From: Chitinophagales bacterium
GTDB taxonomy: Bacteria; Bacteroidota; Bacteroidia; Chitinophagales; UBA10324
DNA: 64,000 nt
NCBI GenBank assembly: GCA_044227805.1
Contig: JBGAWA010000005.1
Location: 6,818-70,817, forward strand
Direction of reading: 5' to 3'
This document shows, in pieces, positions 2,603 through 62,613 of this stretch (the stretch's first letter is position 1; the number at the start of each line of letters is the position of its first letter). Below the pieces are notes generated by a model. The model did not search any database. It worked only from the letters and a program-made list of their open reading frames with translations, and was not told where the DNA came from. The position numbers and the translations under genes are program-made.

Positions 2603-2729
2603 GTTGTAGTAAAATTGCCTTTTCTCTTTCGTTGATCCCGGATTTACCAATGGAAAAATCCCTCTTCGCTGCGACGGGAAACTGCTACCGGCGGGCTGAA
2701 AAGCAATTTTCCATCTCGCCGTAATGAAA

Positions 2730-7174: not shown

Positions 7175-7471
7175 TTGTAACGGACTATTGATGCTTTGCG
7201 ACACCGTGATCACGCGGTTGGCGCACTTATGCAGTTGAATAAGTGAGGCGGTTCAATCAAACATCTTTCAATTTTAAATCCTCATTTTTCAATGTATAGC
7301 AACAATGTGTTTCACTCCGAAACAGTGGTGTAAAATGCGGTTTCGGCTAACAGTTTGCGCTCTTGCATTCCGATGGGATTGTCAGCCTCTGCCTTTCTAC
7401 GAAGATCCGCTTTCAAAAATACACAGCAACGTCAAACGGAACCCGAGGCCCCGCCTGACGCAATACCACTG

Positions 7472-7633
7472 TTAAACCCACATTTTGCAGTTCAAAGCGG
7501 CATCGGGTTTAACCCCGACGTAGAGCTGCTTAGGGTTTGTGAAACATTTTCTTTTCTTGACAAATTGAGCAAACCCTTAGCAGCTCTAAGTCGCAGCGAA
7601 GCGGGATTTTTCCACTGAAAAATCCGGGTTAAA
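7472..7633 (+). repeat. Full-length copy A of the ~162-bp three-hairpin intergenic element (MITE/REP-like)
   Basis: Aligns end to end with 48920-49081 and 62453-62613. Contains hairpins TTAAACCC-N25-GGGTTTAA, a 17-bp stem with a 30-nt loop, and GGATTTTTC-CACT-GAAAAATCC. The ends are imperfect inverted repeats. Confidence 0.9.
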
Positions 7634-11630: not shown

Positions 11631-11762
11631 AAGCGACTCCGTGAACTGAAAGATATACAAAATCATGATTTGTTGCGCTGGAGCTGCGCCGCGCAACGGA
11701 TCGGATATCACAGGGTAATGTTGCAGCAGATACTGTTTTGCACTGCAAAATGAGGGTTAAAT

Positions 11763-12437: not shown

Positions 12438-12550
12438 TTACCCAGCGATTTCCATTTTGCTCCGGGAACGGCCGGCCATCTGTTACGCAAGCTCATTACC
12501 ATGCGTCGCGGGCTTTGTATGAGCAGATCGCGCTACGCAATAATTTGGAA

Positions 12551-12650
12551 CGGATTATTTTTTTCAAAATTGAAAATCTTTCACCACCCTGCTCAGTGCT
12601 CCGCCGGGGTTAAACCCATGGCTGTTTTGAACTGAAAAATGTGGGTTTAG
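12551..12650 (-). repeat. Truncated inverted copy of the three-hairpin element (hairpin 3-like plus hairpin 1, central hairpin missing)
   Basis: GGGGTTAAACCCATGGCTGTTTTGAACTGAAAAATGTGGGTTTAG (12607-12650) matches the reverse complement of the hairpin-1 module. CGGATTATTTTTTTCAAAATTGAAAATC is hairpin-3-like. Confidence 0.65.
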
Positions 12651-13184: not shown

Positions 13185-13412
13185 CATTCTTTGCCGGACA
13201 CTGCGCTGATTTCCCATAAAAAATTTCTGCATGACCAACTGTGCGCATGGCCTGCGCAACCTTACTTCAACAGGCTTTTGCTGATTGCATTAATAAATTT
13301 GTGAATATTTTTTCATTGAAAATACCGCATAGCGGCAGAAGAGTCCTGCTGATGCTTTTCTCAATTATGAAAAAAATAAATAATTCCAACCCCTCTCAGC
13401 AGTGCCCACACA

Positions 13413-13455
13413 GGCTTAACCCTGTTTCCTTTTGAACTATAAATTGCGCGATTAA
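13413..13455 (-). repeat. Solo hairpin-1 module of the repeat family (inverted orientation)
   Basis: GGCTTAACCCTGTTTCCTTTTGAACTATAAATTGCGCGATTAA is colinear with the reverse complement of the hairpin-1 consensus. It lies 28 nt upstream of the wzm ATG. Confidence 0.5.
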
Positions 13456-20800: not shown

Positions 20801-20827
20801 TGGTTGATGGTTATCGTTGCCAGCCCG

Positions 20828-20978
20828 TGATTGATTTGCAGTTCAAAAACAGCAGCAGGTTAACTACTACGTTGTGCTGCTTTGTGTTTGTAAAACATTT
20901 TCATTTATGAAAAAAATGAACGAACCCGTAGCTGCGCTACGTCGAACCCGCATTACTCTATTGAAAAATCAGGGCTAA
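20828..20978 (+). repeat. Diverged colinear copy of the three-hairpin element
   Basis: GATTTGCAGTTCAAAAACAGCAGCAGGTTAAC ... TTTGTAAAACATTTTCATTT ... TTGAAAAATCAGGGCTAA follows the consensus order. Lies between convergent genes. Confidence 0.6.
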
Positions 20979-20995
20979 TAAAAATTTACAGGGCA

Positions 20996-22123: not shown

Positions 22124-22150
22124 GCTTCAAAGATTGGAATTACTGCTTAC

Positions 22151-22236
22151 AACCGCATTGAACCGGGTAAAACAGCAACGGGTTTAACGGCAACATGGTA
22201 TTGCTGCTTTTTGTAATGGAAAAAATCAGGGTTAAA
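22151..22236 (+). repeat. Truncated copy of the three-hairpin element (hairpin-1 end plus hairpin-3 end)
   Basis: AACAGCAACGGGTTTAAC followed by TTTTTGTAATGGAAAAAATCAGGGTTAAAC. Lies between divergent glycosyltransferase genes. Confidence 0.55.
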
Positions 22237-22293
22237 CATCGCAATAATAGCAGGCAATAAAAATCATTCTTGCAAATTGTGCAAATTTGTAAC

Positions 22294-30891: not shown

Positions 30892-31053
30892 GCAGTATGC
30901 CCAGGTTCTGAATAAAGCAATACTCCGCACTAAGACTGCGCCGCGATTTTTTCCATTGAAAAACCAGGCAGTGTTACGACGGAGAACCGCTTATGGTTTG
31001 CTCATTTTGTTCAAAAAAATAACCGGCTTACAAACCGTTGACGGTGCTGTGAA

Positions 31054-31098
31054 GGGGTTAAGTTGGTTACTGTTTTGCAAGCCAAATTGTGGGTTTAA
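31054..31098 (-). repeat. Solo hairpin-1 module of the repeat family (inverted orientation)
   Basis: GGGGTTAAGTTGGTTACTGTTTTGCAAGCCAAATTGTGGGTTTAA matches the reverse complement of hairpin 1. Lies 56 nt upstream of the asnB-like ATG. Confidence 0.55.
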
Positions 31099-37663: not shown

Positions 37664-37675
37664 CCTGAAATAAAA

Positions 37676-37714
37676 TTAACCCTCATTTTGAAATTCAAAA
37701 CAGAAATGGGTTGA
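37676..37714 (+). repeat. Solo hairpin-1 module of the repeat family
   Basis: TTAACCCTCATTTTGAAATTCAAAACAGAAATGGGTTGAA. Lies 12 nt from the start codon of the minus-strand membrane-protein gene. Confidence 0.55.
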
Positions 37715-37742
37715 ATGCTGATGTATCCTGCATAAAGAAACC

Positions 37743-43152: not shown

Positions 43153-44148
43153 ATGATGTCAACTACCGAGGTAACCGAACTGAATGAAAAAATCCGAAAG
43201 CAAAGCACGTTTATCGATTCCTTAAAAAATGAAATGGCCAAAGCCATTATCGGACAACAATACATGGTGGACAGGCTCATACTTTCCCTGCTCTCCAATG
43301 GGCATATATTGCTGGAAGGCGTGCCCGGGCTTGCCAAAACGCTGGCGATAAAAACAATGGCCGCTGCCATTCGGGCCGGCTTCAGTCGTATACAATTTAC
43401 ACCCGACCTGTTACCCGCCGACTTGTTGGGCACTATGATCTATAACCAGCAAAAAAATGAATTCACCGTAAAGAAGGGACCGGTTTTTTCCAACCTGATA
43501 CTGGCGGATGAAATCAACCGTGCCTCTGCTAAAGTGCAAAGCGCTTTACTGCAGGCCATGCAGGAACGACAGGTAACTATCGGGGATCAGACCTATAAAC
43601 TTGAGGAACCGTTCCTGGTTCTGGCAACACAAAATCCATTGGAACAGGAAGGAACCTATCCGCTGCCCGAAGCACAAGTGGACAGGTTTATGATGAAAGT
43701 AATTATCACTTACCCGGAAAGGGAGGACGAAAGGCAAATTATCCGTCAACAAATTGCTGATGCGCCAACGTTTATACAACCGGTCATCACACCGCAAGAT
43801 ATCTTAAGTGCACGGCACCTGGTACGCGACATTTACCTCGATGAAAAAATTGAACAATACATTCTCGACATTGTATTGGCTACCCGTAACCCGGCTGAAT
43901 TTAAATTGGAAAAACTCAAAGGCCTGTTGCGGTATGGCAGCTCACCGCGCGGAAGCATCAGCCTGGCAATCGCCGCAAAATCAATAGCCTTTATACAACA
44001 CCGCGGCTTTGTGATACCAGATGATATCAAAAACGTTTGCCTGGATGTGTTGCGTCATAGAATCGGTATCACTTATGAAGCGGAAGCGGAAAACGTGACC
44101 ACAGATGAAATCATCCGCGAAATCATCCGGAAAGTGGAAGTGCCTTAG
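43153..44148 (+). CDS. MoxR family AAA+ ATPase
   Basis: Walker A LLEGVPGLAKT and Walker B ILADEINRA. 331 aa. First gene of the Bat-type operon. Confidence 0.9.
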   Translation: MMSTTEVTELNEKIRKQSTFIDSLKNEMAKAIIGQQYMVDRLILSLLSNGHILLEGVPGLAKTLAIKTMAAAIRAGFSRIQFTPDLLPADLLGTMIYNQQKNEFTVKKGPVFSNLILADEINRASAKVQSALLQAMQERQVTIGDQTYKLEEPFLVLATQNPLEQEGTYPLPEAQVDRFMMKVIITYPEREDERQIIRQQIADAPTFIQPVITPQDILSARHLVRDIYLDEKIEQYILDIVLATRNPAEFKLEKLKGLLRYGSSPRGSISLAIAAKSIAFIQHRGFVIPDDIKNVCLDVLRHRIGITYEAEAENVTTDEIIREIIRKVEVP

Positions 44149-44196
44149 TGATGAAAAAATGCAGCCTTAACTTTGTAACCCTACCAAACAGCAGAC

Positions 44197-45072
44197 GTGG
44201 AAACCGCTGAGCTTATTAAGAAAGTCCGGAAGCTGGAGATCAAAACAAAAGGCATGGTAAGCCAGCTTTTTTCAGGCGAATACCACAGCGCTTTTAAAGG
44301 ACGTGGCATTTCTTTCAGCGAAGTGCGTGAATATGAATTGGGTGATGAAATCCGGTCTATCGACTGGAATGTTACTGCCCGCATGAATCACCCCTATGTT
44401 AAAGTGTTTGAAGAAGAACGCGAACTGGCGGTAATGCTGATGGTGGATGTAAGTCAATCAGCGATGTTCGGCACACAGCAACAATCCAAGTATGACCTGA
44501 TCGCTGAGGTGAGCGCCTTGCTGGCCTATTCCGCCATTCGCAATAACGACAAAGTGGGCATGATTCTTTTCAGCGATAAAATCGAAAAATTCATTCCTCC
44601 CCAAAAAGGCAGTTCACACATTTTGCGGATCATCAGGGAGCTGCTGGACGTTTCACCGGCTTCCCCAAAAACTAACATCGCCTCGGCGTTGCAGTATCTC
44701 AACAACGTGATAAAAAAAAGATGCGTAGTGTTCCTGCTGTCGGATTTTATCACTTCCGGGTACGAACCCATGCTGATGATCACAGCACGAAGGCATGATG
44801 TGGTGGGAATTCATGTATTCGATCGCCGTGAAACGGAAATACCCGATATCGGTTTGCTGCAGGTGCAGGATGCGGAAACCGGCAAGATCCTATGCATTGA
44901 TACCGGCAATGGTACCCTACGGAAAAATTACGCACAAAAATACCAGCACCATCTTCTGCAGTTGACAGTCGTGTTGCAGCGATGCGGCATTGACTCCATC
45001 AGCATTCAGACAGGCAATCCATACATACGGGCGCTGATGTTATTGTTCGAAAGAAGAAGCAAAAAAGTTTAA
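44197..45072 (+). CDS. DUF58 domain protein
   Basis: GEYHSAFKGRGISFSEVREYELGDEIRSIDWNVTAR is the DUF58 hallmark. GTG start in the ORF track. Confidence 0.85.
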   Translation: METAELIKKVRKLEIKTKGMVSQLFSGEYHSAFKGRGISFSEVREYELGDEIRSIDWNVTARMNHPYVKVFEEERELAVMLMVDVSQSAMFGTQQQSKYDLIAEVSALLAYSAIRNNDKVGMILFSDKIEKFIPPQKGSSHILRIIRELLDVSPASPKTNIASALQYLNNVIKKRCVVFLLSDFITSGYEPMLMITARRHDVVGIHVFDRRETEIPDIGLLQVQDAETGKILCIDTGNGTLRKNYAQKYQHHLLQLTVVLQRCGIDSISIQTGNPYIRALMLLFERRSKKV

Positions 45073-45101
45073 TCCAGATCAATCAGCAGGACACGAGGAG
45101 T

Positions 45102-46055
45102 ATGACCAGAAAATGTAAGTGGCTTACCGTAGTGATGATCATGGCGCCGCTGTTGTTCCTGCACGCTCAATCCATCCGCATCACTGCCACACTCGATTCC
45201 ACCAATTACCGGGTAGGTGACTGGATCCGCATTCAACTATCCGCCGAACATCCTTTCGAAACAAAAATGCGCTGGAACCGGCCGGTGGTGATAGATGCAC
45301 CCGGTTTTGAAAAGCTGGCGGAATCTGCTATTGACTCTATTGAGCATAATGATTTTCTCACCGAAAGGAAGATGATCACCGTCACTACATTTGACACCGG
45401 CGTATGGCAGATTCCGCCGATTACCTGCTACTACGAGCAAAAGGGCGTTATAGACAGTGCTTCATCAAATCCACTGTCAGTTTATATTGCGGCTGTTGCC
45501 ATCGACACTGCTGCCGCTGCCCGCCCGCTGAAAGGGATATTTACTATTGCGGCGACCGGTCAAAGTATAGCATGGTACCTTTTGCCATTCCTTTTATTAA
45601 TCTTGATTGCATTGGCCGCCTGGAACTATTTCCATCAAAAAACGAAATTAAATAAACACCAATCACAGCCTGAGGCGGATACACGGTTACCCCATGAAAA
45701 AGCTTATGACCTCCTTATGTCGCTGGAATTAGAAAAACCATGGGAACACGATCTGGTAAAGGAATACTATGTGCAAGTGACGCAAATTTTAAGGGAATAC
45801 ATTGAAACGGGGCTGGAACTGCCGGCACTCGAAAACACCACGCAGGAACTGCTTGTTTCCCTGCGAAAAAAATCACTGGATGAAAAATTAATCCTCCAGC
45901 TAAGTGATGACCTGAACCTGGCTGATCTCGTGAAGTTTGCCAAAGTACAACCGGCAACAGCTTCACACCTGCGAATTTTACATACGGTGAAAGACTTCAT
46001 TCAAAAAACAACACCTGTCACCCACTTACCGGCACCGGAGGGCCAGGCTGAATGA
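45102..46055 (+). CDS. Bat-operon membrane protein (BatD-like N-terminal domain plus TM plus DUF4381-like C-terminal region)
   Basis: Signal peptide, one central TM (WYLLPFLLLILIALAAW), then a helical C-terminal part. Its position between DUF58 and BatA is typical of Bacteroidota Bat operons. Domain naming is tentative. Confidence 0.6.
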   Translation: MTRKCKWLTVVMIMAPLLFLHAQSIRITATLDSTNYRVGDWIRIQLSAEHPFETKMRWNRPVVIDAPGFEKLAESAIDSIEHNDFLTERKMITVTTFDTGVWQIPPITCYYEQKGVIDSASSNPLSVYIAAVAIDTAAAARPLKGIFTIAATGQSIAWYLLPFLLLILIALAAWNYFHQKTKLNKHQSQPEADTRLPHEKAYDLLMSLELEKPWEHDLVKEYYVQVTQILREYIETGLELPALENTTQELLVSLRKKSLDEKLILQLSDDLNLADLVKFAKVQPATASHLRILHTVKDFIQKTTPVTHLPAPEGQAE

Positions 46056-47032
46056 TTCACTTCGCGAATCCAGAATGGTTTTGGTTGCTGAATAGCATTC
46101 CGTTGCTGATTATTTGGTATATCCTGCGCCACCATACACTGCAGCAATCATTACGTCTCTCTACTATTTCTTTTTTCGATGCGCCCCGTTCAGTCGTCAT
46201 TTATCTGCGTCACAGTCTCTTTGTTTTGCGGTTGTTGGCTATTGCAGCATTGATTATCGCCTTGGCGAGGCCACAGGCTGTACTCTCAAAAACCAGCATT
46301 GCCAGTGAAGGGCTCGATATTGTATTGGCGATGGATATATCAGGGAGTATGCTGGCCCGTGATTTTGTTCCCAGCAGGTTAGAAGCTGCCAAAAAGGTGG
46401 TCGTTGAATTTATTGAAAAGAGACCCAATGATCGCATCGGAGTAGTATTCTTTGCAGGGGAAGCATACACCGGTTGCCCGACCACTATCGATCACCATGC
46501 CTTACAGCAGATTATCACAAATGTGAAAACAGGATCGATAGAAGATGGAACCGCTCTTGGACTCGGCCTTGGCACTGCAGCCAGCCGGCTGACAGAGAGT
46601 AAGTCCGCGACAAAGATCATTATCCTCGTCAGCGATGGTGAGAACAATGCCGGTGCAGTGAAACCCCTGGAAGCCGCGCAACTCGTGAAATCATTAGGCA
46701 TTCATACTTATTGCATTGGTATCTTTTCGCCGGCTGCTGAAAAAAAGCCGGTTACCGCCAATGACAGTGCCTATGCTGCTATGGGCGGTCCTACTGCTGA
46801 AACCACCTTGTTGCAGATAGCCGAAATAACAGGCGGTCACTATTTTCGAGCCGGTAATGAAAAAACACTGCAGGACATCTACCGGCAAATTGATGTGATG
46901 GAAAAAACGAAATTAGATGTCGCTGCTTTTCACCGGTATGAAGAACGTTTTTTCCTGCTGGCCATCATCGCAGCACTGGCACTGCTGGCAGAAATATTTC
47001 TTCGTTATACCCTATTCCGCACAACGCCCTGA
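46052..47032 (+). CDS. batA: VWA domain protein BatA
   Basis: N-terminal TM helices followed by a VWA MIDAS motif (DIVLAMDISGSM). ATGA overlap with the upstream gene. Confidence 0.85.
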   Translation: MIHFANPEWFWLLNSIPLLIIWYILRHHTLQQSLRLSTISFFDAPRSVVIYLRHSLFVLRLLAIAALIIALARPQAVLSKTSIASEGLDIVLAMDISGSMLARDFVPSRLEAAKKVVVEFIEKRPNDRIGVVFFAGEAYTGCPTTIDHHALQQIITNVKTGSIEDGTALGLGLGTAASRLTESKSATKIIILVSDGENNAGAVKPLEAAQLVKSLGIHTYCIGIFSPAAEKKPVTANDSAYAAMGGPTAETTLLQIAEITGGHYFRAGNEKTLQDIYRQIDVMEKTKLDVAAFHRYEERFFLLAIIAALALLAEIFLRYTLFRTTP

Positions 47033-48054
47033 TGCAGTTAGAACATCCATATTATCTTTTGGGTTGGCTGTTGCTGCCAGCGGTGGTGTTACTGTTTATA
47101 CATTACCGCAACTGGCGCAAGAAAGGGTTGAGACAATTTGGGGACTGGCCATTAGTCGCGCAGTTGATCGCAGCCAACAGTATTTCCCGGCCTGTTATTA
47201 AATTCTGCTTGCTGCTCACCGCATTCACACTCATCATCTTCGCATTGGCGAATCTTCAATATGGAACAGCATCGCGCAACATTCGCCATGAAGGTATTGA
47301 CCTTGCCATCCTGCTTGATGTCTCCAACAGTATGCTCGCTGCAGATGTGCCCCCCAACCGGCTGGAACTGGCCAAAAAGGCTGCCGCGCAATTGATAGCG
47401 GAAATGCCCGATGCACGGATTGCCTTCATCACCTTTGCCGCTATTCCGGTAATGCAAACACCGCTGACCATTGATCACCGCGCCGCACAATTACTGATCA
47501 GTGCTATCAGCGCTGAAGATGTGCCCGAACAGGGAAGTGATATCGGTGCTGCCTTGCTGGAAGGCATTCGGTCGCTTCCCGAAAATCAAAATCACTATCG
47601 TGCCATCGTTCTCATCAGCGACGGAGAAGACCAGGAAGGAGCACTGAAACAGGCCATTGACGCCGCAAGGGAAAACCAGGTGGTGGTCTGCACCGCAGGG
47701 TTGGGAAGTGAAAATGGCACCACCATTCCCATGAGTGAAGATGGAATCATCACTCAGAAAAAAGATCAGGAGGGTAATGTGATCGTCACCAAATTCAATC
47801 CTTCAACATTAAAAGCCATTGCCGGAAGTAATCATGGGATTTTTGTGAAGATGCAAACCGGCCACCGGGAAGCGGTGCGCAGCATTGTACAACACCTTGA
47901 CGCCCTCAATAAAAATCAGTTGGATGAACAGTTGCTGGTACAATATGAGTCGAGGTTTCAGTGGTTCCTATGCGCTGCATTGCTGTTGCTGACGATGGAA
48001 TTGCTGATAAGCAATCGAAAAATGGTTGGGTGGAGAAATCGAAAAGCATCATGA
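47032..48054 (+). CDS. batB: VWA domain protein BatB
   Basis: TM helices followed by a VWA MIDAS motif (DLAILLDVSNSM) and a C-terminal TM. TGATG overlap with batA. Confidence 0.85.
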   Translation: MQLEHPYYLLGWLLLPAVVLLFIHYRNWRKKGLRQFGDWPLVAQLIAANSISRPVIKFCLLLTAFTLIIFALANLQYGTASRNIRHEGIDLAILLDVSNSMLAADVPPNRLELAKKAAAQLIAEMPDARIAFITFAAIPVMQTPLTIDHRAAQLLISAISAEDVPEQGSDIGAALLEGIRSLPENQNHYRAIVLISDGEDQEGALKQAIDAARENQVVVCTAGLGSENGTTIPMSEDGIITQKKDQEGNVIVTKFNPSTLKAIAGSNHGIFVKMQTGHREAVRSIVQHLDALNKNQLDEQLLVQYESRFQWFLCAALLLLTMELLISNRKMVGWRNRKAS

Positions 48055-48689
48055 AAGACAAATTCATTCTCTATGCTGTCTGCTTGCTGCCGCTGCTGAT
48101 GATGACAGGGTGCTATTCAGCAATCGCACAAACACCGGAAGAACTGATGGTGAAAGGAAACCTTGCCTACGAAGCAAAAAACTTCGGTGAAGCGCAGCGC
48201 TTCTATGAAACAGCATTGTCACAATCCGGCGTGCTGCGTTTTCCGGAATGGCAATTTAACCTGGGCAATGCACTTTATCAGCAGCAGAAATTTACGGAAG
48301 CTTCTGTGCAGTTCAACCAGCTGGCCGCTGCGCACGTGTCCACCGCTCTAAAAGCTGCATCCTATTTTAATGCAGGCAATTGTTATCTCCAGCAAAAAAA
48401 TTATGCCGCCGCCCTTGCTGCCTACAAAAACACTTTGCGTCTTAACCCGCTGGATGAGGATGCACGGTACAATCTCACTTTCGTAACTGCCTTGATGGCA
48501 AAGAATGCACCTGCCGGCAAAGTGGCGGCCTCTATGTCAAAAGAAATTTATCAGCCGCCGCCGGAAGCCAACCTTACGCCGGAAGAACAACGCCGCCTGC
48601 TCGACCAACTCAATGCCGCTGAAAATCAAACCCTGCAGCAACGACCGAAAAAGCTGCAGCAACAAAAGAAGAATCTGAAAGACTGGTAG
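48051..48689 (+). CDS. batC: TPR-repeat protein BatC
   Basis: The ATG at 48051 overlaps the batB stop. Lipoprotein-like signal (LLMMTGC), TPR repeats (GNLAYEAKNFGEAQRFYETAL; GNCYLQQKNYAAALAAYKNTLRLNP) and a Gln/Lys-rich tail. Confidence 0.8.
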   Translation: MKDKFILYAVCLLPLLMMTGCYSAIAQTPEELMVKGNLAYEAKNFGEAQRFYETALSQSGVLRFPEWQFNLGNALYQQQKFTEASVQFNQLAAAHVSTALKAASYFNAGNCYLQQKNYAAALAAYKNTLRLNPLDEDARYNLTFVTALMAKNAPAGKVAASMSKEIYQPPPEANLTPEEQRRLLDQLNAAENQTLQQRPKKLQQQKKNLKDW

Positions 48690-48865: not shown

Positions 48866-48919
48866 TTTTCGTTTTGAACCCTGCAAATGCTACATTTTAT
48901 AGTTCAAAACAGTTTTGCC
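48866..48919. repeat. Head-to-head pair of hairpin-1 core motifs
   Basis: GTTTTGAACCCTGCAAATG is immediately followed by CTACATTTTATAGTTCAAAACAG. It abuts full copy B. Confidence 0.45.
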
Positions 48920-49081
48920 TTAAACCCACATTTTGCAGTTCAAAGCGACAACGGGTTTAACCCCGACATAGAACTGCTTAGGGTTTGTGAAACATTTTCT
49001 TTTCTTGACAAATTGAGCAAACCCTTAGCAGTTCTGAGTCGTAGCGAAGCGGGATTTTTCCACTGAAAAATCCGGGTTAAA
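48920..49081 (+). repeat. Full-length copy B of the ~162-bp three-hairpin element
   Basis: Differs from copy C (62453-62613) at about 3 positions and from copy A at about 7, by manual alignment. Confidence 0.9.
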
Positions 49082-49190
49082 CCGGATCTTGATTAAAATA
49101 CTGCCTCATAGAGTAAAAGAAATGGACACGCCGGCAAGAAAGTATTAGTCTGCTCCTTAAGATTTGGTGGTTTTGTCGCTTACAGTAACT

Positions 49191-49230
49191 TTAGCCCATA
49201 TTTTACAGTTCAAAACAGCAGCGGATTTAC
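49191..49230 (+). repeat. Solo hairpin-1 module of the repeat family
   Basis: TTAGCCCATATTTTACAGTTCAAAACAGCAGCGGATTTAC is colinear with the hairpin-1 consensus. Confidence 0.5.
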
Positions 49231-49263
49231 CTATTGATTCAATACGTGACTAATTTTCCAGAC

Positions 49264-51467: not shown

Positions 51468-51500
51468 GGTGGTTGAAATTACGGAATGAGGATGGAATGC

Positions 51501-51655
51501 AACCCGGAATTTTCAATAGAAAAATCCTGCTTCGCTGCGAAGAACTGCTTAGGGTTTGTTCATCTTTACAAGAAAAGAAAATGTTTCGCAAACCATAAGC
51601 AGCTCTACGTTGGGGTTAAACCCGTTTTTGTCCTGATCGGCAAAAGGTGGGATTA
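51501..51655 (-). repeat. Diverged full-length copy of the three-hairpin element, inverted orientation
   Basis: AACCCGGAATTTTCAATAGAAAAATCC ... GAACTGCTTAGGGTTTG ... CAAACCATAAGCAGCTC ... GGGGTTAAACCCG ... GGTGGGATTAA is colinear with the reverse complement of the consensus. Confidence 0.75.
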
Positions 51656-52063
51656 ACGGCTGCTGACGAGACCGGCTCCATTTTTTTCCAGCACGATAGT
51701 GGTAATGCCATGCATACCATTCATGTCAACCGTTTTTAAACGATAAAAAAGTTTCATGCCCGGCTGCAACACAATTTGCGAATCAATAACCTGGTAGTGT
51801 GCACCAACGGCATAACGGTTTTTGGCGGGTACCATGGCCATCATCTCATAGTTGATGCCATCCAGCGAACGTTCAAGAACGAAACAATGGATATTTTTTT
51901 CGCGCTCGGTATCCCATTCAATGGTCACCTCATCGTCCGTAACATTGCTTTGCAGTCTGGCTACCACTTCATTGGTAACGGCATTTTTTGTCGTCTGTGC
52001 TGCTGATGGCTGAAAAGCCATCGTTATCACAAACAGGAGCGAAAGGCAGAATTGATGTTTCAT
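51653..52063 (-). CDS. Small secreted hypothetical protein (Ig/FN3-like beta-sandwich suspected)
   Basis: The ATG at 52063 gives the signal peptide MKHQFCLSLLFVITMAFQPSAAQ. 136 aa. No recognisable catalytic motif. Confidence 0.55.
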   Translation of the reverse strand: MKHQFCLSLLFVITMAFQPSAAQTTKNAVTNEVVARLQSNVTDDEVTIEWDTEREKNIHCFVLERSLDGINYEMMAMVPAKNRYAVGAHYQVIDSQIVLQPGMKLFYRLKTVDMNGMHGITTIVLEKNGAGLVSSR

Positions 52064-52281
52064 TGTATGAATTTTAAAAATGACCTGATAGTCCAGCAAA
52101 AGTAACCGGAGGCAGGAGGCACGACAAGTCCACTAAATGGGGACAACCGGCTGATGGCCTGGAGCAGGCACGAGCAGCCGCGGAGCGGTTTTCAGCCGTA
52201 ACGCAACTCAGTGGATAAATAATGTAATTTGAAATGAGGGCATTCGATGATGCTCAAACGCAAATTTGATCAGCATCAGTT

Positions 52282-62196: not shown

Positions 62197-62210
62197 TCCT
62201 GCCATTAGTG

Positions 62211-62357
62211 TTAAACCAACCATTGCAGTTCAAAACATCCGTGAGCATAACCCCGATGTAGTTCTGTTTAAGGTGTGTGAAATATTTTTTTGTAAAATGC
62301 GCAACCCCTTATCGGTTTTCAGCCGTAGCTGATCGGATTTTTTTTATTGAAATATGA
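62211..62357 (+). repeat. Diverged copy of the three-hairpin element
   Basis: TTAAACCAACCATTGCAGTTCAAAACATCCGTG ... CCCCGATGTAGTTCTG ... GATCGGATTTTTTTTATTGAAATATGAAG is colinear with the consensus but much diverged. Confidence 0.6.
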
Positions 62358-62362
62358 AGACT

Positions 62363-62403
62363 AAAAGCCCTGCAGCGAAAAATATCGCTGCAGGGCTTTT
62401 TTG
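62363..62403 (+). terminator. Intrinsic (rho-independent) terminator
   Basis: AAAAGCCCTGCAGCGA-AAAATA-TCGCTGCAGGGCTTTTTTG has a perfect GC-rich stem of at least 12 bp flanked by an A-tract and a T-tract. Downstream of the + strand gene ending at 62196. Confidence 0.8.
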
Positions 62404-62452
62404 TCCCGCTGATAGTTCAGTCTGCTTTTCTGAAAATACAATCCTGTATTTT

Positions 62453-62613
62453 TTAACCCACATTTTGCAGTTCAAAGCGGCAACGGGTTTAACCCCGACG
62501 TAGAACTGCTTAGGGTTTGTGAAACATTTTCTTTTCTTGACAAATTGAGCAAACCCTTAGCAGTTCTGAGTCGCAGCGAAGCGGGATTTTTCCACTGAAA
62601 AATCCGGGTTTAA
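62453..62613 (+). repeat. Full-length copy C of the ~162-bp three-hairpin element
   Basis: Near-identical to copies A and B. The 3' end is GAAAAATCCGGGTTTAA. Confidence 0.9.

Follow-up and report, generated by a model that had tools for sequence, protein, structure and literature searches.

Bacterial MITEs (miniature inverted-repeat transposable elements) include the Correia/NEMIS elements of Neisseria, RUP of Streptococcus pneumoniae and ERIC/IRU of the enterobacteria. Elements of the Correia/NEMIS type are about 100-160 nt long and non-coding, carry terminal inverted repeats and a short AT-rich duplication, and are present in hundreds of intergenic copies; they form stable hairpins when transcribed and occur as length variants with or without a central module. 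To our knowledge, no transposase has been identified for the Correia elements. Here we describe an element of comparable organization in a 64,000-nt stretch of DNA from a Chitinophagales bacterium (GCA_044227805.1, contig JBGAWA010000005.1, positions 6,818-70,817 of the forward strand), which is hereafter termed the window and in whose coordinates all positions are given. A previous inspection of the letters alone (the sequence-only reading) had noticed a dispersed repeat with three hairpins, and had left it between a MITE, a composite of repetitive extragenic palindromes (REPs) and a structured small RNA. The window element is similar to the Correia/NEMIS, RUP and ERIC/IRU elements in its size, ends, intergenic abundance, hairpins and length variants, whereas it shows no sequence similarity to any of them, duplicates TTAAA instead of TA, and resides in a member of the Chitinophagales; its copy number equals or exceeds the upper end of what those families reach. 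The evidence presented below suggests that it is very probably a MITE of the type with terminal inverted repeats, i.e. a non-autonomous DNA transposon, which duplicates TTAAA upon insertion. General features of MITEs are given in PMC11602168 and PMC3733652.

Ends, target duplication and an empty allele

Three young copies of the element, at 7472-7633, 48920-49081 and 62452-62613, lie in the same (forward) orientation and align end to end with 7, 6 and 5 pairwise differences in 162 positions and no indels, in agreement with the sequence-only reading save that the third copy starts at 62452. The element proper, counted without the flanking pentamers, is 152 nt in length (162 nt with them), begins with CCC and ends with GGG, and these termini are found in all intact copies. 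It occupies 7477-7628 in copy 1, where it scores 196.5 bits with a covariance model built from seven copies and is entered from both flanks by contigs of three metagenomes, 48925-49076 in copy 2, and 62457-62608 in copy 3. The terminal inverted repeats begin at CCC and run for about 20-25 nt: the left end (CCCACATTTTGCAGTTCAAA) and the right end read as its reverse complement (CCCGGATTTTTCAGTGGAAA) match at 15 of 20 positions. In copy 1 the left repeat, CCCACATTTTGCAGTTCAAAGCGGC, lies at 7477-7501 and the right repeat, which also holds the 3' arm of hairpin 3, at 7604-7628, both on the forward strand; the same left end recurs in a related element on the JGI contig L013 (see below) and in isolated fragments.

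When the element's left half was compared with its right half read as the reverse complement, the two aligned over the full length, with 49 identical columns and a score of 13, as against -12.6 +/- 4.3 (maximum 4) for shuffled sequences. Hence, the element is better described as one long imperfect palindrome, in which hairpin 2 (7517-7594 in copy 1; a stem of 17-22 bp with a loop of about 30 nt) is centred on the midpoint, while hairpins 1 and 3 represent local pairings within the end regions. The three hairpins originally proposed are accordingly present as described, but they are parts of this single palindrome rather than three separate units. Likewise, the imperfect inverted repeats at the ends are real when counted from CCC, but the outer five bases that had been included in them are direct repeats lying outside the inverted repeat, and the reverse complement of the 3' end reads TTTAACCC... 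in the copies at 7472 and 48920, not TTAAACCC as had been given.

The pentamers abutting CCC and GGG are TTAAA on both sides of the copy at 7472 (7472-7476 and 7629-7633, forward strand, identical and in direct orientation), TTAAA on both sides of that at 48920, TTTAA on both sides of that at 62452, and TTAAA on both sides of the L013 element, i.e. perfect 5-bp direct repeats flank all three young copies and this relative. Two older copies retain four of the five bases, those starting at 22147 (TTACA/TTAAA) and 62210 (TTAAA/CTAAA). Because the two sides are identical, and because in one copy they have switched jointly to the reverse complement, the outer five bases can be recognized as a target-site duplication; were they an inverted repeat, TTAAA at one end would face TTTAA at the other. 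Such flanks are what a CCC...GGG element would leave on inserting into TTAAA in either orientation and duplicating the pentamer. The earlier guess of a TTAA or TA duplication was therefore close, the simplest form being the pentamer TTAAA/TTTAA.

A direct view of a site with and without the element is offered by the 48920 locus in metagenome X4, in which a filled junction (a 101-nt contig of depth 9.3) coexists with an empty allele (a 5.2-kb contig of depth 11). The filled allele reads GCC-TTAAA-(152 nt)-TTAAA-CCGGATC. The empty allele joins 48923 to 49095, reading ...TTTTGCC-TTAAC-CCGGATCTTGATTA..., with a single pentamer and no element, and the absence is exact to the base. The comparison of filled and empty sites called for by the sequence-only reading thus yields a precise empty allele for copy 2 in this population, at one locus.

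Copy number, lineage restriction and age

Of the sampled words of the window, 95-98% are present in metagenomes of activated sludge and wastewater that come from many studies. For 14 DNA metagenomes the contigs were aligned to the window, 12 of these metagenomes aligning on at least one of the three young copies, and the summed contig depth over the element was compared with the depth of its flanks. The ratio is about 500-1,100-fold as a mean of bins, a figure possibly inflated up to about twofold because consecutive unitigs overlap by 30 nt, and 200-600-fold in the lowest bin. This range implies roughly 200-1,100 copies per genome, and several hundred copies in one wastewater Chitinophagales species is a safe statement, which bears out the earlier suggestion of genome-wide abundance. 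The ratio is similar among samples in which the organism's own depth spans 5 to 75, and therefore the copies travel with this organism. Hundreds of contigs leave the element into unlike sequence, with an agreement between loose ends of only 0.4-0.6, and therefore the flanks are diverse; several tail-to-head joints further indicate that tandem pairs are common. Contigs of metagenomes X3 and X14 contain a variant of the family without exactly the central 71 nt (joints 48964 to 49036 and 62496 to 62568), and a short copy in the window (22147-22238) is of the same type lacking the central hairpin. Therefore, the centre of the element is dispensable for its persistence and perhaps also for its mobility.

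Within the window, a 26-nt degenerate core pattern has 5 matches against 0.00 expected from shuffles, and a scan with the covariance model, run without filters, recovered at least 16 copies or fragments. The copies listed by the sequence-only reading are real, but the family is larger, with two further full copies besides several partial copies and fragments. Together these account for 1,904 bases, or 31% of the 6,170 intergenic bases, and all 16 are intergenic when judged against the set of longest open reading frames (ORFs), so that the previous claim to this effect holds. The sole ORF overlapping copy 1 (7355-7618) is an artefact of choosing the longest frame, which runs across the element, and the element is without coding capacity. 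Free TTAAA or TTTAA sites outside the elements number 139 in genes versus 22 between them, yet 16 of 16 copies or fragments are intergenic; evidently, insertions in genes are not tolerated and have been purged by selection.

The covariance model found no match in 78 kb of DNA from relatives with 86-92% protein and 72-77% DNA identity, including contigs syntenic with 43-48 kb and 52-62 kb of the window, and 241 million JGI metagenome records contain no exact occurrence of the core pattern. It follows that the family is limited to this species or to a narrow lineage. A match to the core pattern in a metagenome-assembled genome of Melioribacter (L001), among the matches listed in genome contigs, is a chance match. 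Among the options that had been entertained, the MITE is favoured by the inverted ends, the target duplication, the precise empty site seen in a single population, the hundreds of copies and the confinement to one lineage.

The copies differ from one another by 3-4%, while strains differ by about 0.6%, and therefore most of the expansion is older than the sampled strains. In every population examined the contigs run through the diverged copies and break only at the three young ones, and a 25-kb contig of X4 passes through every diverged copy between 7607 and 32686, so that the old copies are fixed. The copies at 7472 and 62452 are filled in every population with both flanks covered, the latter in X20, X9 and X14. 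In X4 the contig to the left of the 62452 copy ends at 62401, with zero depth over 62410-62435 (within 62402-62451), indicating that this population differs there.

Alternative explanations, related elements and the transposase

Elements of the REP type, mobilized by REP-associated tyrosine transposases (RAYTs), and those of the IS200/IS605 group of insertion sequences (ISs) produce no target duplication and keep a fixed orientation beside the target; the IS200/IS605-derived palindrome-associated transposable elements, likewise, have neither terminal inverted repeats nor a target duplication and lie in fixed orientation 3' of a target oligonucleotide. The window element departs from the latter in each respect, having inverted repeats, a duplication and both orientations relative to the pentamer. 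It shares with the REP/REPIN-RAYT systems the presence of hundreds of palindromic, intergenic, lineage-restricted repeats that are often clustered or in tandem, as well as a GTAG at the foot of hairpin 2. However, this GTAG is base-paired in the stem and so differs from an unpaired tag, neither arm of hairpin 2 forms a palindromic unit of 20-40 bp by itself, and the stem of 17-22 bp and loop of about 30 nt are outside the ranges of REPs, which are 20-40-bp palindromes with stems of 5-13 bp, loops of 2-20 bp and an unpaired GTAG or CGTC tag (PMC3733652). REPs, moreover, have neither inverted repeats at their ends nor a 5-bp target duplication, and the tyrosine transposase that serves them is present in a single copy; no RAYT gene was detected in Pfam scans of 20 ORFs of the window. 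The option that the element is a REP/BIME-like repeat or REPIN moved by a RAYT, as the sequence-only reading had allowed, is thus very improbable. An origin of the copies as fragments of a larger annotated IS, a prophage or an integron cassette array appears extremely improbable: isolated end fragments do exist, and the sequences GTTTAAC/GTTAAAC resemble the core of integron attC sites, but the young copies end sharply at the pentamer with flanks unrelated between copies, the neighbours are housekeeping and polysaccharide genes, and matches in phage and viral collections are only at chance level. The attC interpretation in particular is rejected on account of the dispersal of the copies, which are not arrayed with cassettes.

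A third possibility, namely that the copies are structured small RNAs or cis-acting RNA modules (mRNA stabilizers, terminators or riboregulators) whose spread is secondary to their function, is one that we consider highly improbable. The fold is very stable, with a z-score of about -6.8 (about -6.6 to -7.3 against shuffles, on either strand and as RNA or DNA), but both strands fold equally well, so that the fold points to no particular strand or molecule. Among the seven copies 85% of cells pair, versus 31-48% with the partners slid, as expected for a structure derived from the same sequences; a few stem pairs change on both sides, but the covariation is not above that of shuffles, its observed values being reached by 57, 76 and 192 of 500. 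Rfam yielded no match at the gathering score, and below it only generic hairpin noise from miRNA models. Element sequence is present in four metatranscriptome assemblies in which the flanks of the same locus have zero depth, these data being unstranded contigs only. In one of these (X43) the depth profile of 9/16/131/248/58 differs from the DNA profile, with over-representation of the centre of hairpin 2 and of its 3' arm, which argues against pure carry-over of DNA and still fits read-through of some of the several hundred copies. One diverged copy lies within a 3' untranslated region (UTR). On the other hand, neither a sigma-70-type promoter in or around the copy at 62452-62613 nor, by a simple scan, a hairpin with a T-run within it was found; orthologous sites of relatives are without the element; and the orientation of copies in one-directional gene contexts is 4 sense versus 3 antisense. 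Interpretations of the end motif as a sigma-54 promoter or the Bacteroidota -7 promoter (TAnnTTTG) do not fit by eye. We conclude that copies are transcribed in places, and saw no evidence for a selected RNA, so the small-RNA option of the sequence-only reading is not sustained; the hairpins appear to be a by-product of the palindromic ends and centre, and may affect mRNAs that carry a copy.

Returning to the MITE interpretation, relatives of the element were recovered from two sources. A search for the left-end pattern in JGI metagenome contigs returned three matches (L011, L012 and L013), of which only L013 is a real relative: it carries at 409-588 a 180-nt element with the ends CCCGCATTTTGCAGTTCAAA and CCCAGATTTTGCAGTTGAAA (17 of 20 positions matching), flanked by TTAAA on both sides and sharing CCCnnATTTTGCAGTTsAAA ends with the window element, in addition to a 69-nt mini-element. 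The other two are unrelated GC-rich contigs with the exact left-end 21-mer AACCCnCATTTTGCAGTTCAAA (L011:320-341 and L012:3563-3584) 10-20 nt upstream of start codons, in one case followed by AGGAGG; these could represent chance, solo ends or a shared regulatory motif. Three scans of viral contigs gave matches about as often as chance predicts, with none forming an inverted pair. The second source, a BLAST search of plasmids with the window element, led to Persicobacter sp. JZB09 of the Cytophagales (unannotated PLSDB records), which contains a MITE of about 225 nt with the ends TTAA followed by CCCGRATTATTCA in at least 175 places on seven replicons. It is like the window element in its type of end (TTAA, then CCCGRATT.TTCA...), with right ends 86% identical over 41 nt, and in being of high copy number and seemingly intergenic. 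It differs in internal sequence and length, in that its outer TTAA is palindromic, making a duplication there indistinguishable from an inverted repeat, and in that a group II intron or an IS of the IS4 family is lodged in some of its copies. Among the window, L013 and Persicobacter elements the interiors differ while the ends share one type, as would be expected of different MITE families served by related transposases. Neither the window family nor its Persicobacter and JGI relatives were found described in the literature, in which a string search for the end sequences retrieved only unrelated primers.

The Persicobacter records also held two candidates for a full-length parent element, which were both rejected. 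One, of 2.26 kb, is the MITE carrying a group II intron: at L018:45226-47482, L040:12965-15223 and L036:3430-5687, MITE copies 95-97% identical contain the same 2-kb intron with a 452-aa reverse transcriptase/maturase ORF, and it appears that either the intron uses the MITE as a homing site or the whole composite is being copied. The other, of 1.2 kb (L015:36702-37922), is an IS4-family IS inserted in a MITE copy; it encodes a 375-aa transposase (151.7 bits with NCBIfam transpos_IS4_2, against a cut-off of 152), is flanked by the 9-bp duplication ATTCGGGCT, and has ends (CATACAnCTAGACATTT) unrelated to those of the MITE. These, namely the MITE with the intron in three copies and the MITE interrupted by the IS, are the longer units bounded by MITE ends across 462 kb of DNA from Persicobacter, in which five other multi-copy IS elements have unrelated ends.

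The claim that the window lacks a transposase is supported, if not exhaustively, by Pfam scans of 20 ORFs, with the remaining ORFs judged only by reading their translations, by the Pfam labels of genes in the relatives' regions syntenic with 43-48 kb and 52-62 kb, which include no transposase, and by a tblastn search with the ISEcp1 transposase that was negative in the window and the other DNA compared. Members of the IS1380 family typically have a 4-5-bp AT-rich duplication and CC(C)...(G)GG termini, and the window element resembles ISEcp1 of this family, and piggyBac, in both the termini and the AT-rich, TTAA-type duplication of 4-5 bp. Given termini of the CCC/GGG kind and a duplication, TTAA(A), that measures 4-5 bp, the most likely source of the enzyme would be a transposase of the IS1380 family, related to piggyBac, which we offer as a lead with a probability somewhat less than even. 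In an E. coli record ISEcp1 has the left end CCTAGATTCTACGTCAGTACTTCAAAAAG (CCTAGATTCTACG...TTCAAAAAG), which has 8 of 14 anchored matches to the end of the window element; set side by side, CCTAGATTCTAC...TTCAAAAAG of ISEcp1 and CCCACATTTTGC..TTCAAAG of the window element have the motif TTCAAA in common, and ISEcp1 begins with CCTAG. ISEcp1 is 1.6 kb long and coding, while the window element is 152 nt and non-coding, and no IS1380-derived MITE was found described in the literature. The ends of piggyBac begin with CCC, its duplication is TTAA, and IS1380 is its prokaryotic outgroup (PMC10813416).

Several observations weigh against a MITE mobilized in this manner. The pentamer of the empty allele, TTAAC, is one base off the expected TTAAA, and the left 70 nt of this allele have 4 mismatches, which implies that it belongs to a diverged haplotype. 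Polymorphism was seen for only one of three young copies and in only one of the 12 DNA metagenomes aligned on them. No new insertion was seen in 17.6 kb across four populations. A transposase with such ends was sought without success in the window, in the 462 kb from Persicobacter, and in the scans of viral and metagenome contigs. The similarity to the ends of ISEcp1 is weak (8 of 14 on the left, 6 of 14 on the right), with ISEcp1 of E. coli being the only member compared. Finally, the flanks could be explained by a 4-bp TTAA duplication with two forms of the element, a less economical alternative. The third of these, together with the divergence of 3-4% among copies against about 0.6% among strains and the fixation of nearly all insertions, would also be accommodated if the element was once mobile and is now dead, with the empty allele having arisen by deletion between the two TTAAA repeats instead of being the pre-insertion state or a product of excision. 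We regard this as possible but on balance unlikely; it agrees with the MITE interpretation on origin and mechanism, differing only on current activity.

For the MITE, then, the following course of events may be proposed. A DDE-type transposase encoded elsewhere in the genome would bind both ends and excise or copy the element, which would be inserted into the pentamer TTAAA in either orientation with duplication of the pentamer. Genic insertions would be lost to selection, leaving copies to build up in intergenic DNA, frequently next to or within older ones. The expansion to several hundred copies would have taken place in one Chitinophagales species after its split from relatives of about 75% DNA identity, with the older copies decaying in place. 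It is possible, though doubtful, that the window, Persicobacter and JGI families mark a clade of piggyBac-like transposases of the Bacteroidota with a TTAA(A) target, CCC...GGG termini and footprint-free excision, in keeping with the exact empty allele; in that case a single enzyme of this sort would lie behind one of the largest bursts of MITEs known for a bacterium.

Further copies, genomic context and significance

The diverged copies of the window comprise five full copies, along with partial and short forms and isolated ends. Those that the sequence-only reading had placed near 51501-51655 (inverted), 20828-20978 and 62211-62357 are full copies according to the model. The first, at 51495-51656 on the reverse strand, is 81.5% identical to the young copies (167.5 bits), and its outer TTAA overlaps the stop codon (51653-51655) of the ORF at 51653-52099. 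The others, at 20827-20982 (130.9 bits) and 62210-62368 (133.3 bits) on the forward strand, are each about 64% identical. The copy at 62210-62368 sits between 62196, where a Zn-peptidase gene has its stop codon, and a hairpin that resembles a terminator with its T-run (62365-62402), and so is the copy inside a 3' UTR mentioned above. The hairpin at 62365-62402, an 11-bp GC-rich stem followed by TTTTTT, lies downstream of this gene and has the appearance of a classical intrinsic terminator; it is absent from the simple terminator scan, probably as flanking A/T bases extend its stem. The two full copies that had gone unlisted are on the reverse strand at 30934-31098 (141.3 bits) and 13294-13455 (39.1 bits), the latter being strongly diverged.

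Among the incomplete forms, the copy at 12479-12650 (reverse strand; 56 bits) keeps only the 5' third, with the left end and the start of hairpin 2, whereas that at 2629-2715 (reverse strand; 28.8 bits) retains only the 3' part, with the right end and hairpin 3. The short form at 22147-22238 (forward strand) has the left end joined to the right end without hairpin 2, and a mini-element at 37675-37715 (forward strand) consists of two facing ends. Isolated left-end fragments are found on the forward strand at 49190-49235 and, directly upstream of copy 2, at 48884-48918, and on the reverse strand at 11720-11761, upstream of an acylphosphatase gene; a degenerate left-end fragment lies at 7274-7337 (forward strand). 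Several of the copies nearly fill the whole gap between neighbouring genes.

The genes of the window include those for PorP/SprF and for a protein bearing a sorting domain of type IX secretion. The database proteins nearest to those of the window carry the name Chitinophagales bacterium (MAG), whereas exact look-ups of two window proteins gave no match, probably because the starts of the longest ORFs deviate from the gene calls or because the collection lacks the source genome. A long cluster for polysaccharide biosynthesis and export at 13484-37663, interrupted by four copies of the element, encodes an ABC-2 permease and ATPase, sulfotransferases, several glycosyltransferases, FemAB/GNAT-like proteins, methyltransferases, a DegT-type aminotransferase, an asparagine synthase and a polysaccharide deacetylase, the majority being identified by reading the translations and not by scans. 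The run of genes at 43153-48689 for a MoxR ATPase, a DUF58 protein, a BatA/VWA protein and a TPR protein, which is syntenic with the relative L009, resembles the aerotolerance (Bat) operon of Bacteroides.

Taking an assumed genome of typical size, several hundred near-identical copies would amount to about 1-3% of the genome and a third of its intergenic DNA. The unusual copy number is the notable feature here, the kind of element itself, selfish DNA, being well known. The organism is common in activated sludge, its contigs from short reads are broken at the young copies, and knowledge of the repeat should aid its assembly and binning; the presence or absence of individual copies also provides a ready marker for strain typing. 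As copies are situated in UTRs and between operons, their strong hairpins could alter mRNA stability or termination. If the enzyme proves to be of the IS1380/piggyBac-like type, a bacterial MITE burst would be linked to the TTAA-specific transposons used in genome engineering, and the proposed piggyBac-like clade, if real, would provide a bacterial model for TTAA-specific, seamless cut-and-paste transposition.

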